From the NCBI GenBank assembly GCA_016389475.1, contig GCA_016389475.1_3042.1: a stretch of 64,000 bases of DNA; one strand, written 5' to 3'. The translations under genes were made by a program, and so were the position numbers. This DNA is from a phage. Of this stretch, positions 29,254 to 30,274 are shown one piece after another; position 1 is the first letter of the stretch; each line of letters begins with the position of its first letter. Under the pieces are notes generated by a model. It was not told the origin of the DNA. It did not search any database and saw nothing but the letters and a program-made list of their open reading frames with translations.

Positions 29254-29329
29254 TGGTCGAGGCAGTAGGGATCGAACCTACGACCCAGGACTTAGAAGGT
29301 CCTTGCTCTTCCTTCTGAGCTATGCCCCG
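29254..29329 (-). tRNA. tRNA-Arg (anticodon TCT), CCA encoded
   Basis: Manually folded cloverleaf: acceptor CGGGGCA/TGCCTCG, D-arm GCTC/GAGC, anticodon loop CTTCTAA, T-loop TTCGATC. Confidence 0.8.
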
Positions 29330-29333
29330 TAAT

Positions 29334-29409
29334 TGGGGTGACCGATGGGAGTCGAACCCATGACTACGAGAATCACAATCTCGAGTTCTACCAACTGAAC
29401 TACGGCCAC
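29334..29409 (-). tRNA. tRNA-His (anticodon GTG), CCA encoded
   Basis: Acceptor GTGGCCG/CGGTCAC, anticodon stem CGAGA/TCTCG, loop TTGTGAT, T-loop TTCGACT, discriminator C. Confidence 0.7.
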
Positions 29410-29523
29410 ATTAATACCTACTCCAACAATCATGATGTCTTCACACGAAATTAAGAGAAGAGTGATCAGTTCAACCCCTATAATCGCGTCAAGTAGATAT
29501 TAATGTGACAGTTGTCACAAATT

Positions 29524-29598
29524 TGGCGGACGTGATAGGATTCGAACCTATAACCAATCGCTTAACAGGCGATCGCTCTGCCATTGAGCTACACATCC
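29524..29598 (-). tRNA. tRNA-Asn (anticodon GTT), CCA encoded
   Basis: Acceptor GGATGTG/CACGTCC, anticodon stem ATCGC/GCGAT, loop CTGTTAA, T-loop TTCGAAT. Confidence 0.7.
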
Positions 29599-29602
29599 AA
29601 AT

Positions 29603-29689
29603 TGGTGGGGAGTGATGGAGTCGAACCACCCGAGTCGCAATGACAATGAATTTACAGTCCACACCGCTACCTCTACGGGATAACTCCCC
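29603..29689 (-). tRNA. tRNA-Tyr (anticodon GTA), long variable arm, CCA encoded
   Basis: Acceptor GGGGAGT/ACTCCCC, anticodon loop CTGTAAA, about 15-nt variable arm, T-loop TTCGACT. Confidence 0.65.
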
Positions 29690-29701
29690 TAATTCATAAT
29701 T

Positions 29702-29776
29702 TGGTGGCCCTGGGTGGAATTGAACCACCATCTGGCGATTATGAGTCGCTTGCTTGAACCTTCCAGCTACAGGGCC
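29702..29776 (-). tRNA. tRNA with CAT anticodon (Ile-lysidine type as in T4, or Met)
   Basis: Acceptor GGCCCTG/CAGGGCC, anticodon loop CTCATAA, T-loop TTCAATT. Confidence 0.7.
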
Positions 29777-29777
29777 T

Positions 29778-29853
29778 TGGTGCTGATTGACGGAATCGAA
29801 CCGCCGACATCCTCATTACAAGTGAGGTGCTCTACCTACTGAGCTAAATCAGC
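29778..29853 (-). tRNA. tRNA-Thr (anticodon TGT)
   Basis: Acceptor GCTGATT/AATCAGC, anticodon stem CCTCA/TGAGG, loop CTTGTAA, T-loop TTCGATT. Confidence 0.8.
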
Positions 29854-29858
29854 AAAAC

Positions 29859-29948
29859 TGGCGGAGGCGATAGGATTCGAACCTATGAGTCGCCGGAGCG
29901 ACTGCCGGTTTTCAAGACCGGTGCATTCAACCACTCTGCCACGCCTCC
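29859..29948 (-). tRNA. tRNA-Ser (anticodon TGA), long variable arm
   Basis: Acceptor GGAGGCG/CGCCTCC, anticodon stem CCGGT/ACCGG, loop CTTGAAA, T-loop TTCGAAT. Confidence 0.8.
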
Positions 29949-29950
29949 AG

Positions 29951-30024
29951 TCTCCATACAAGGATTTGAACCTTGGACCTCCTGATCCCAAATCAGGCGC
30001 TCTACCAAACTGAGCTACACGGAG
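29951..30024 (-). tRNA. tRNA-Pro (anticodon TGG), no encoded CCA
   Basis: Anticodon stem CCTGA/TCAGG, loop TTTGGGA, T-loop TTCAAAT. Only 2 nt separate it from tRNA-Ser (Pro-Ser dimer arrangement known from T4). Confidence 0.8.
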
Positions 30025-30034
30025 TAAATTAAAT

Positions 30035-30108
30035 TGGAGCGGATAATGAGAATCGAACTCACATCATCAGATTGGAAGTCTGAGGTAATGCCATTATACG
30101 ATATCCGC
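30035..30108 (-). tRNA. tRNA-Gly (anticodon TCC), CCA encoded
   Basis: Acceptor GCGGATA/TATCCGC, anticodon stem TCAGA/TCTGA, loop CTTCCAA. Confidence 0.8.
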
Positions 30109-30113
30109 AAATT

Positions 30114-30200
30114 TGGTGCGAGAAGTGGGACTCGAACCCACAAGGAAATCATTCCGCAGCATTTTAAGTGCTGTGCCTTTACCAATTTGACCATTCTCGC
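30114..30200 (-). tRNA. tRNA-Leu (anticodon TAA), long variable arm, CCA encoded
   Basis: Acceptor GCGAGAA/TTCTCGC, anticodon stem CAGCA/TGCTG, loop CTTAAAA. Confidence 0.8.
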
Positions 30201-30201
30201 G

Positions 30202-30274
30202 CTGGGAATAAAGGATTCGAACCTTTGCATCCTGGAATCAAAATCCAGTGCCTTACCAACTTGGCTAATTCCCA
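30202..30274 (-). tRNA. tRNA-Gln (anticodon TTG), no encoded CCA
   Basis: Acceptor TGGGAAT/ATTCCCA, anticodon stem CTGGA/TCCAG, loop TTTTGAT. 1 nt from tRNA-Leu (Gln-Leu dimer arrangement known from T4). Confidence 0.8.

Follow-up and report, generated by a model that had tools for sequence, protein, structure and literature searches.

The tRNA genes at positions 29254–30274 of the window (the whole stretch of phage DNA analysed, 64,000 nt in length) form an already known and annotated tRNA operon of the T2/ACG-C40 type from a T4-like coliphage (Tequatrovirus), and the only unreported item of the locus is an apparently unannotated structured RNA of 114 nt between the genes for tRNA-Asn and tRNA-His. 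Judged by its sequence, the locus is a T2-type allele lacking segB, together with a module made up of this 114-nt element and the tRNA-His gene. The explanation that we favour, and consider fairly probable, is that of a polycistronic T2-type tRNA operon plus the His module, in which tRNAs reading NNA codons would serve codon supply, the Tyr, Asn and His tRNAs would mainly be spare or nuclease-insensitive copies directed against host defence, and gene content would be exchanged by homing endonucleases.

Gene content of the cluster

Exactly 11 tRNA genes were called by ARAGORN on the minus strand of positions 29254–30274, in the order Gln(ttg)-Leu(taa)-Gly(tcc)-Pro(tgg)-Ser(tga)-Thr(tgt)-CAT-Tyr(gta)-Asn(gtt)-His(gtg)-Arg(tct), a list identical in number, anticodons and order to that of an earlier note on this DNA. 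In all 11, ARAGORN drew a cloverleaf in which the acceptor stem is 7 bp long, the D, anticodon and T arms are present, and the anticodon loop has 7 nt. Ten of the genes were supported by Rfam RF00005 (gathering threshold, 29 bits) at 59–75 bits with E <= 2.7e-10, far beyond chance. The cloverleaves and anticodons that the earlier note had assigned to Tyr, Asn and His were accepted by ARAGORN, the Tyr gene falling below the RF00005 gathering score, with tRNA-Sec as its best Rfam match (29.9 bits). CCA is encoded in 9 of the 11 genes and lacking from Gln and Pro only, which lie 1–2 nt from Leu and Ser, respectively; the CCA-less Gln-Leu and Pro-Ser dimers claimed previously were thus borne out for Gln and Pro, but not for Leu and Ser, in which CCA is encoded. 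The features of the locus, all on the minus strand, are as follows.

30201–30274, minus: tRNA-Gln (UUG); ARAGORN; Rfam 68.7 bits; no CCA, a single C before Leu
30114–30200, minus: tRNA-Leu (UAA); ARAGORN; CCA encoded
30035–30108, minus: tRNA-Gly (UCC); ARAGORN; CCA encoded
29950–30024, minus: tRNA-Pro (UGG); ARAGORN; no CCA, 2 nt before Ser
29859–29948, minus: tRNA-Ser (UGA); ARAGORN; CCA encoded, as CCAG
29778–29853, minus: tRNA-Thr (UGU); ARAGORN; CCA encoded
29702–29776, minus: CAT-anticodon tRNA (Met in databases); ARAGORN; CCA encoded
29603–29689, minus: tRNA-Tyr (GUA) with long variable arm; ARAGORN
29524–29598, minus: tRNA-Asn (GUU); ARAGORN
29410–29523, minus: 114-nt structured RNA element; fold z-score, covariation, covariance model
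29334–29409, minus: tRNA-His (GUG); ARAGORN; C73, CCA encoded, T at -1
29254–29329, minus: tRNA-Arg (UCU); ARAGORN; T2-type allele
28885–29235, minus: 116-aa ORF between Arg and rnaD; phrog_3355, function unknown
28773–28885, minus: homologue of T4 rnaD (stable RNA species 2), 79% identical
28628–28766, minus: homologue of T4 rnaC (stable RNA species 1), 97% identical
28554–28577, minus: terminator-like G+C-rich hairpin followed by a T run

The 116-aa ORF had no Pfam match above the cut-off (DUF2654, 16 bits). The hairpin at 28554–28577 was found by a consensus scan, in which the count of such hairpins was not above that in shuffled sequences, and is likely to mark the end of the tRNA/stable-RNA transcription unit. 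Host RNase P and 3' nucleases would process a single transcript, and only Gln and Pro would receive CCA from the host enzyme.

Comparison with T4, T2 and other relatives

In T4 (NC_000866), the cluster, made up of subclusters I and II, lies at the corresponding place in the genome, between trna.2 and the e.8 side, the order Gln-Leu-Gly-Pro-Ser-Thr-CAT...Arg-rnaD-rnaC is that of the window, and the front-half genes are near-identical at 98–100% (Leu 84/84, Thr 73/73, Gly 70/71, Ser 85/87, Pro identical). CCA is missing from Gln and Pro in both phages, whereas Ser and Ile lack it in T4 and the Ser and CAT genes of the window encode it. The tRNA-Gln gene shares 62 identical positions with T4 and 62 with T2, its anticodon arm being unlike either. 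The T4 Ile and Arg genes are other sequences (47/74 for the window CAT gene and 47/77 for Arg, about 62% identical). The T4-like core proposed in the earlier note therefore stands for gene content, order and the front half, but its CAT and Arg genes are non-T4 alleles, and a T4 core with three insertions was rejected as a description of the locus on the same grounds.

Between Ile (CAT anticodon) and Arg, T4 carries segB, a GIY-YIG homing endonuclease gene, and no Tyr, Asn or His gene, while this interval holds Tyr, Asn, the 114-nt element and His in the window, where no similarity to segB was found anywhere (best blastn match, 16 nt). The extras had been placed at the site of the T4 stable RNAs, which disagrees with the T4 map: segB lies there, and rnaD and rnaC follow Arg. 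T4 also has no ORF between Arg and rnaD, where the window has one.

Like the window, T2/T2L (PV648364; Brok-Volchanskaya et al. 2008, PMC2330249) lacks segB, and the distal genes match it almost throughout (CAT 72/72, Tyr 84/84, Asn 72/72, Arg 72/73). The T2L allele, mapped in 2008, comprises Met, Tyr, Asn and Arg together with ORFs (PMC2330249), and since the CAT and Arg genes of the window differ from T4 and match T2, its whole distal half corresponds to this T2-type cassette. The likeness extends to the ORF after Arg (112/117 identical, stop counted), which is followed by rnaD and rnaC, and to the Ser gene, reported with CCAG in T2L (PMC2330249). T2 differs in having a 133-aa ORF where the window keeps Thr, and in lacking the element and tRNA-His that the window has between Asn and Arg. 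In T6 (NC_054907; Chihara et al. 2026, PMC13096335), a 'Met' gene with CAT anticodon precedes Tyr, as in the window, but segB and a T4-type Arg follow it, and Asn, His, Pro and Ser are absent. The number of extras (Tyr, Asn, His) at the same locus is thus 0 in T4, 1 in T6, 2 in T2 and 3 in the window phage.

The complete block is common among closer relatives. At least 80% of the Tyr–His block was covered in 187 phage records, and the Tyr-Asn-element-His block is 98–100% identical in ACG-C40, wV7, CAM-21 and about 185 other Tequatrovirus records, reaching 100% over Tyr, Asn, spacer and His in ACG-C40. The cluster of CAM-21 is 99.4% identical and annotated with the same 11 tRNAs. Records of the ACG-C40 type, in many of which the tRNAs are annotated, show essentially no difference from the window, and 10 tRNAs were given for this locus in the ACG-C40 paper of 2012 (PMC3347319).

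Homing endonucleases and exchange of cassettes

The targets of SegB lie within tRNA genes, that in T2L tRNA-Asn being cut best, and in crosses about 1250 bp of the T2L cluster are replaced and the T2L allele is excluded by T4 (PMC2330249). The window tRNA-Asn, identical to the T2 gene, ends in CCAA and would fit the CCAR preference of SegB. At least five alleles of the locus were found, and at the points of exchange or next to them lie GIY-YIG or HNH endonuclease genes, among them a Seg-like ORF between His and Arg in 11B_SA_NWU; segB is widely associated with tRNA genes. Whether a close relative has the extras or lacks them would reflect gene conversion driven by homing endonucleases.

The same observations (tRNA-gene cutting and replacement by SegB, the alleles with endonuclease genes at their borders, the widespread segB association), and the description of the cluster as non-essential for phage development (PMC2330249), also favour a stronger reading, in which homing endonucleases set the distal content as a by-product of selfish DNA and the extras are passengers of little or no benefit. 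We regard this as distinctly unlikely: the genes are highly conserved with cloverleaves intact across hundreds of phages, the Tyr gene has also reached rV5-like and T5-like phages, specific changes at nuclease recognition sites are present in both the Asn and the Tyr tRNA of the phage, and deletion of the T6 tRNA region has a measurable phenotype, a higher sensitivity to Septu, on a host with this system (PMC13096335).

Codon usage and the CAT-anticodon tRNA

The CAT-anticodon tRNA has the same sequence as the T2 gene labelled 'Met'. Its anticodon arm (GCGACTCATAATCGC) is identical to that of E. coli ileX, and its acceptor stem (GGCCC.../...GGGCC, with C4-G69/C5-G68) is as in ileX, metT having GGCTA. 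An ileX-like anticodon arm and C4-G69/C5-G68 acceptor pairs are reportedly the determinants of TilS (Ikeuchi et al. 2005). The gene is probably an AUA-reading tRNA-Ile2.

Codon usage of the phage was compared with the E. coli frequencies of the Kazusa K-12 table, on which all phage/host ratios rest. Ratios were 5.4 for AGA, 3.0 for ATA, 2.9 for GGA, 2.7 for TCA, 2.4 for ACA, 2.1 for TTA, and 1.6 for both CCA and CAA, and all eight of these core codons are used more in the late block (encoding gp6, gp7, gp18 and gp23). With the CAT gene counted as Ile2, eight NNA-reading tRNAs would supply codons used 1.6–5.4 times as often as in E. coli, most strongly in the late genes. For the extras, Tyr codons stand at 44.5 per 1000 (about 1.6 times E. 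coli) and Asn codons at 58.4 per 1000 (about 1.5 times), with Asn rising to 62.8 in late structural genes, but His codons are rarer than in E. coli, with 15.8 per 1000 in the phage as a whole and their lowest value, 12.1, in the late genes. A codon-usage mismatch, one of the reasons the earlier note offered for extra tRNAs, therefore fits Asn and perhaps Tyr, but not His.

Supply and demand might nevertheless be the whole explanation, the Tyr, Asn and His tRNAs matching codon usage and having no link to defence. The clear tracking of codon demand by the eight core tRNAs and the raised Tyr and Asn usage speak for this reading, but it leaves the under-used His codons unexplained, and no phage tRNA serves the codons of Lys (AAA), Asp (GAT) and Phe (TTT), the enrichment of which is about equal to that of the Tyr and Asn codons. 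Moreover, T4, T6, T2 and the window phage are of one genus and closely alike in the tRNA region, but have from none to three extras, so codon usage cannot account for the differences, and we hold this alternative to be unlikely. In the favoured account, in which defence is the main role of the extras, Tyr, Asn and His each duplicate the only isoacceptor family of the host for that amino acid (anticodons of the type G34-U35-N36), which is why they would act mainly as spare or nuclease-insensitive copies when defences cut host tRNAs; the Tyr and Asn copies would also help to meet the roughly 1.5-fold higher demand.

tRNA-Tyr, tRNA-Asn and host defence nucleases

The Tyr gene departs from the canonical form in a D stem with one mismatch and an anticodon stem with two G-U pairs (ARAGORN), and is apparently labelled tRNA-OTHER in some GenBank records, its Karamvirus homologue being labelled tRNA-Pseudo-GTA. 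It is nevertheless 86/87 identical to T6 tRNA-Tyr, including the whole variable arm, and its variable and T arms are identical to those of T5 tRNA-Tyr. The variable arm is of a phage type, with a 2-nt insertion (TG) that is absent from E. coli tyrT.

T6 tRNA-Tyr is expressed and functional, and its overexpression or amplification rescues T6 from Septu, which cleaves tRNA-Tyr in the variable loop and not in the anticodon; T4, which has no tRNA-Tyr, cannot escape Septu (PMC13096335). The variable loop of T5 tRNA-Tyr is credited with resistance to retron-Eco7 (PMC13096335). Transferred from T6 and T5 by sequence identity, these results suggest that the window Tyr would counter nucleases of the PtuAB type (Septu, retron-Eco7). 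A limit on this transfer is that T6 tRNA-Tyr is itself cut by Septu and benefits the phage through dosage only (PMC13096335), so that a single unamplified Tyr copy in a phage without segB may protect little. T6 can amplify Tyr via SegB (PMC13096335), and in the window, from which segB is missing, amplification by this route is unavailable in cis. The proposal in the earlier note that extra tRNAs oppose host tRNA depletion by anticodon nucleases is thus upheld by experiment as regards defence, for T6 tRNA-Tyr against Septu, but not as regards the anticodon.

For tRNA-Asn, the window reads UUAAG (G39), as does T5 Asn, where E. coli asnT reads UUAAU (U39). E. coli tRNA-Asn(GUU) is a secondary target of AriB, cut at UAAUC/C (the slash marking the cut), and T5 Lys, Thr and Asn jointly neutralise PARIS (PMC12409363). 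G39 of the window and T5 Asn breaks UAAU within the U36-A-A-U39-C40 motif, and Asn would, jointly with Thr, oppose the AriB nuclease of PARIS, a proposal that rests on one nucleotide in a secondary target. Most likely, the additional tRNAs for Tyr and Asn stand in for host tRNAs that bacterial defence nucleases have cut. For tRNA-His no cognate defence is known; it figures solely as a possible minor AriB product (PMC12409363).

An explanation of the colicin E5 type was also considered and is unsupported, as G34-U35 and a loop resembling that of E. coli are retained in the phage tRNAs. The targets of colicin E5 are Tyr, His, Asn and Asp tRNAs.

The 114-nt element and tRNA-His

The gap of 114 nt between Asn and His is the only inter-tRNA gap in the cluster longer than 12 nt, and the structured element that fills it was overlooked in the earlier note. 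The element has a 14-bp closing stem, the 3' strand of which ends at position -1 of tRNA-His and which can be continued into the tRNA acceptor strand, and it contains internal hairpins. It folds better than shuffled sequences (z = -3.7), is present in 356 phage records, shows compensatory changes between copies, and reached a covariance model score of 122.6 bits. It always lies directly 5' of a tRNA-His without encoded G-1.

The element was annotated as a feature in none of the records sampled, and Rfam 15 gave no match within 29410–29523 even at E <= 10. Several other identities were tried and rejected: a divergent rnaC or rnaD copy (blastn showed no similarity), a promoter (no minus-strand sigma-70 site within it, site counts equalling those of shuffles), and a degenerate tRNA (no ARAGORN call). 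No T4 late (TATAAATA) or MotA-box motif was seen in it by eye.

A parallel exists in T5 (NC_005859), in which the 106-nt stable RNAIII adjoins the 5' end of a tRNA-His with U at -1. Both RNAs are of about 105–115 nt with a 14-bp stem joining the ends and internal hairpins, and RNAIII likewise folds better than shuffles (z = -3.3). Homology was not supported by the covariance model built from the T4-like copies, which scored RNAIII at 8.6 bits (E about 4, filters off), and only an analogy between the two is claimed.

The tRNA-His gene combines C73, a GUG anticodon, encoded CCA and a good cloverleaf (65.1 bits). Position -1 is T in the window, in the copies of Pet-CM3-4, Roth16 and Melville, and in T5, whereas E. 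coli hisR has G; the Karamvirus, Gelderlandvirus and Klebsiella-phage copies have T at -1 and no encoded G-1. A register in which G1 would become G-1 was rejected, as only the standard register agrees with U8, A14, G18-G19 and the C73-CCA encoded by the gene.

G-1, together with C73, is an essential identity element for HisRS in E. coli (PMC9976931), and its absence raises the question of whether this is a normal translational tRNA. Alternatively, it and the element could form a module with another role, a processed stable RNA joined to a tRNA-like RNA that is hard to charge and serves as decoy, regulator or processing platform, to which the constant association of element and tRNA, the stem ending at -1 with its reach into the acceptor strand, and the under-use of His codons would also be suited. 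Such a role appears improbable, since C73, the GUG anticodon, CCA and the good cloverleaf are kept, some HisRS enzymes tolerate a missing G-1 (PMC9976931), and the U-1 tRNA-His of T5 with a changed anticodon is an effective amber suppressor (NC_005859), which implies that in vivo a tRNA-His of the U-1 type undergoes processing and receives an amino acid of some kind.

We tentatively suggest, as a possibility rather than an expectation, that the element and the G-1-less tRNA-His are one conserved module found across several T4-like genera and paralleled by the RNAIII–tRNA-His pair of T5. The element may be a new stable or processing RNA whose terminal helix, ending at -1 and able to invade the acceptor strand, controls 5' maturation of the tRNA; alternatively, the tRNA may be a His tRNA outside the G-1 rule, or a decoy.

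Significance

The cluster itself is nothing new, as the allele occurs in nearly two hundred phages and a function in defence evasion was given for T6 in 2026, and the practical value of the analysis lies in annotation and interpretation. For the 'tRNA-Met' label in these phages, the gene is probably an AUA-reading tRNA-Ile. The tRNA clusters of T-even phages are mosaics of exchangeable cassettes, reshuffled by homing endonucleases, and the comparison suggests that the number of GUN-anticodon tRNAs in a therapeutic T4-like phage may predict its sensitivity to defences of the Septu, retron or PARIS type. The lead provided by the element and tRNA-His concerns the stable RNA species of T4 and T5, for which an explanation has long been wanting, and the way in which a tRNA-His that lacks G-1 can function in E. 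coli.

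Gene calls and CCA ends

ARAGORN, run on the window, called 11 tRNA genes between 29254 and 30274, all on the minus strand, in the transcription order Gln(UUG), Leu(UAA), Gly(UCC), Pro(UGG), Ser(UGA), Thr(UGU), a CAT-anticodon tRNA, Tyr(GUA), Asn(GUU), His(GUG), Arg(UCU), in exact agreement with the gene list, anticodons and outer coordinates of the earlier note. Ten of the 11 scored 59–75 bits with the general tRNA model of Rfam; the Tyr gene fell below its gathering score, the top match being tRNA-Sec at 29.9 bits, and was drawn by ARAGORN with one mismatch in the D stem and two G-U pairs in the anticodon stem. 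It is apparently labelled 'tRNA-OTHER' in some database records, and a Karamvirus homologue 'tRNA-Pseudo-GTA'. These irregularities do not overturn the gene call, since 86 of 87 positions are identical to the tRNA-Tyr of T6, which is expressed and active (PMC13096335).

Nine genes encode a 3′ CCA, and the two without it, Gln and Pro, lie 1 nt before Leu and 2 nt before Ser, respectively; therefore the description of Gln-Leu and Pro-Ser as CCA-less dimers is true only for the upstream partners, Leu and Ser encoding CCA. The Ser and CAT genes of the window encode CCA, whereas Ser and Ile of T4 do not. The observation in the earlier note is confirmed and its interpretation partly supported.

The 1.4-kb cluster region is 99.4% identical to that of Escherichia virus CAM-21, a Tequatrovirus annotated with the same 11 tRNAs, and is covered to at least 80% in 266 phage records. 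The block of Tyr, Asn, the 114-nt spacer (hereafter the element) and His is covered to at least 80% in 187 records, with 100% identity in ACG-C40, for which 10 tRNAs were reported at this locus in 2012 (PMC3347319), and 99.2% in wV7. Elsewhere in the window, lysozyme, dNMP kinase, gp6, gp7, gp18 and gp23 fit a T4-like phage. This allelic form of the T-even tRNA operon is already known and widely annotated.

Comparison with T4 and T2

T4 is annotated in the order Gln-Leu-Gly-Pro-Ser-Thr-Ile, segB, Arg, rnaD, rnaC. Therefore the T4 interval matching Tyr-Asn-His is filled by segB, a GIY-YIG homing endonuclease gene, and not, as the earlier note has it, by the stable RNA species 2 and 1 (rnaD and rnaC), which come after Arg. 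The following features were found downstream of tRNA-Arg.

Features downstream of tRNA-Arg
28885–29235, minus strand: 116-aa ORF of unknown function (phrog_3355), between tRNA-Arg and rnaD
28773–28885, minus strand: rnaD homologue, 79% identical to T4 rnaD
28628–28766, minus strand: rnaC homologue, 97% identical to T4 rnaC
28554–28577, minus strand: terminator-like hairpin after the rnaC homologue

The 116-aa ORF, inside the RNA operon, has a weak, sub-threshold DUF2654 match; it is found in T2-type alleles, with none at this position in T4. CAM-21, the closest relative, has no annotation for the rnaD and rnaC homologues (extracted locus L001, 4617–4997), and in the T2 record PV648364 (locus L003) two short CDS labelled 'hypothetical protein' (2687–2815 and 2821–2958) overlap the corresponding region, 2615–2871.

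Identity to the T4 genes is 84/84 for Leu, 73/73 for Thr, 70/71 for Gly and 85/87 for Ser, and Pro is identical, but the CAT tRNA matches T4 Ile at only 47/74 positions and Arg matches T4 Arg at only 47/77. The cluster is thus not a T4 core with three genes added: its CAT and Arg genes are not those of T4, and the anticodon arm of Gln has been replaced. Gln (30201–30274, minus strand) has 62 positions identical to T4 and likewise 62 to T2, the differences from both being confined to the anticodon arm (a wholly different stem and two loop changes), and from these alignments it appears to be a third Gln allele.

T2 has identical CAT, Tyr and Asn genes, and identity to T2 is 72/73 for Arg and 112/117 for the ORF after Arg. 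The window allele is the segB-less 'T2L-type' mapped by Brok-Volchanskaya et al. 2008 (PMC2330249), who listed tRNA-Met, Tyr, Asn, Arg and ORFs for T2L, noted a CCAG after T2L Ser (common to T2L and the window), placed the preferred cut of SegB within T2L tRNA-Asn, and showed that in mixed infection about 1250 bp of the T2L block give way to T4 sequence. Compared with T2, the window retains Thr and has gained one module, consisting of the 114-nt element and tRNA-His. The locus is a hot spot of homing endonuclease genes, and at least five alleles were found.

Alleles of the locus
T4: Ile-segB-Arg
T6 and T6-like: Met-Tyr-segB-Arg (T4-type Arg confirmed in a T6-like record)
T2: Met-Tyr-Asn-Arg
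Window type: Met-Tyr-Asn-element-His-Arg
Fifth allele: Met-Tyr-Asn-element-His-(Seg-like ORF)-Arg

Escherichia phage vB_EcoM_11B_SA_NWU (locus L016, 1516–2136) has the same 11 tRNAs and, between His and Arg, a 206-aa Seg-like GIY-YIG ORF matching Pfam SegE_GIY-YIG at 23 bits, just under the cut-off. An HNH endonuclease replaces Gln in the T6-like phage Pu-Krd-SF1.

The CAT-anticodon tRNA

The CAT tRNA (29702–29776, minus strand), which the related records examined list as tRNA-Met, shares its anticodon arm (GCGACTCATAATCGC) with E. coli ileX (tRNA-Ile2), and its acceptor pairs C4-G69 and C5-G68 match ileX; E. coli metT is unlike it, with a GGCTA acceptor and another anticodon stem. According to Ikeuchi et al. 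2005, TilS reportedly distinguishes Ile2 from Met by these acceptor pairs. The gene occupies the position of the biochemically defined tRNA-Ile of T4, as a different allele, and AUA is over-used about 3 times in the window. Given the ileX-like arm and acceptor pairs, the T4 Ile position and the AUA over-use, it is probably an AUA-reading tRNA-Ile2, called Met by anticodon-based pipelines.

Codon supply and tRNA-cutting defences

Codon counts from 77 long ORFs in the window were compared with approximate E. coli K-12 frequencies (Kazusa table). The codons of all eight core tRNAs (those other than Tyr, Asn and His) are over-used 1.6- to 5.4-fold against these approximate values (AGA 5.4, ATA 3.0, GGA 2.9, TCA 2.7, ACA 2.4, TTA 2.1, CCA 1.6, CAA 1.6), and each of the eight rises in frequency from the early to the late structural block, the classical pattern of codon supply. 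Tyr, Asn and His are additions of another kind: each carries a G34-U35-N36 anticodon and copies the sole isoacceptor family that the host has for its amino acid. The suggestion that they track codon mismatch with the host fits Asn and perhaps Tyr, whose codons (58.4 and 44.5 per 1000) are at about 1.5–1.6 times the approximate host frequency, but fails for His, whose codons (15.8 per 1000 overall) are below the approximate host frequency and lowest in late genes (12.1 per 1000). Codons for Lys, Asp and Phe show as much enrichment as those for Tyr and Asn, yet no phage tRNA serves them, and four phages within one genus carry 0, 1, 2 or 3 extras. Codon supply alone is therefore insufficient for the extras.

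Published defence experiments fit the extras better. Septu EcB88, a PtuAB-type nuclease system, cuts tRNA-Tyr within the variable loop; T6 is rescued by tRNA-Tyr overexpression or SegB-driven amplification and is more sensitive with its tRNA region deleted, and T4, without tRNA-Tyr, is unable to escape (PMC13096335). The tRNA-Tyr of T5 reportedly resists retron-Eco7, credited to its distinctive variable loop (PMC13096335; PMC11555353), and has in common with the window Tyr a 34-nt stretch, the variable arm and T arm, with a 2-nt insertion absent from E. coli tyrT. The PARIS nuclease AriB cuts E. coli tRNA-Asn(GUU), a secondary target, at the motif UAAUC|C, and PARIS is neutralised by the Lys, Thr and Asn tRNAs of T5 jointly (PMC12409363). 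In tRNA-Asn, the window and T5 have UUAAG against UUAAU in E. coli, a change at position 39, the site of one of two changes protecting T5 tRNA-Lys. For tRNA-His, the sole defence link is a possible minor cleavage product of the PARIS nuclease AriB (PMC12409363).

Tyr is best read as a spare or less sensitive copy against tRNA-cutting defences that would also help demand, and the same probably applies to Asn; neither codon supply nor defence accounts for His. As a caveat on the counter-defence reading, the window has a single Tyr gene, in a cluster lacking segB as a means of amplification, and the T6 tRNA-Tyr is itself cut, its benefit coming through dosage (PMC13096335). Nearly the same tRNA-Tyr (85–95% identical) occurs in rV5-like myoviruses (about 136 kb), T5-like siphoviruses and 'Campylobacter phage' records. 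Sequence comparison suggests that one phage-type tRNA-Tyr spread horizontally across unrelated phage families.

The 114-nt element and tRNA-His

Inter-tRNA gaps are 1–12 nt throughout, except for the 114 nt from Asn to His (29410–29523, minus strand). This element folds at −32.7 kcal/mol, versus −21.2 ± 3.1 kcal/mol for shuffled sequences (z = −3.7), and occurs in 356 phage records of several Tevenvirinae genera; it was an annotated feature in none of the sampled records, no Rfam family matched it, and no promoter-like site was found on its strand. It always immediately precedes tRNA-His, also in Karamvirus, Jiaodavirus, Gelderlandvirus and other T4-like phages of Klebsiella, Enterobacter, Cronobacter and Salmonella, where its upstream neighbour is tRNA-Gln. 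Alignment of seven copies gave a consensus structure of 28 pairs; a 14-bp stem joining the ends is paired in all seven, and in three of its pairs both partners change (U-A to C-G). Pairing holds in 97.9% of cells overall, versus 34–56% with partners slid, and the observed covariation was matched by only 3 of 500 shuffles. These comparisons, of seven related sequences only, are suggestive of a conserved structured RNA with compensatory changes. A covariance model of the element, based on its copies in T4-like phages, scored 122.6 bits on the window and 78.6–127.1 bits on three viral contigs.

The 3′ strand of the stem terminates exactly at position −1 of tRNA-His, and on co-folding of element and tRNA the helix is able to extend 5 bp into the acceptor strand. 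A hairpin at the 5′ end of the element, GUGACA/UGUCAC (29505–29519, minus strand), resembles the tRNA-His acceptor strands GUGGCC/GGUCAC, and its UGUCAC half can alternatively pair with bases 1–5 of tRNA-His (29405–29409, minus strand); it could be an alternative structure or a duplication remnant.

The tRNA-His gene (29334–29410 including −1, minus strand) has T instead of G at −1, as does every copy from Karamvirus, Gelderlandvirus, Klebsiella phage and T5 (extracted loci L005, L009, L010, L023), so the phage tRNA-His is without a genome-encoded G-1. E. coli hisR, in contrast, encodes G-1. Bacterial genes normally supply this base, which E. coli HisRS needs, together with C73, as its essential identity element (PMC9976931). 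In T5, a 106-nt annotated 'RNAIII, stable RNA with unknown functions' abuts a tRNA-His annotated from U-1, and also has a 14-bp 5′/3′ closing stem (z = −3.3). RNAIII scored only 8.6 bits (E about 4) with the element model, and the likeness is therefore one of position, size and architecture, an analogy for which homology is not claimed. According to the T5 record, an anticodon-changed tRNA-His is an effective amber suppressor, so the U-1 type of tRNA-His is matured and accepts some amino acid. The element and the G-1-less tRNA-His may constitute a functional module, with the involvement of either a third stable RNA or a platform for processing.
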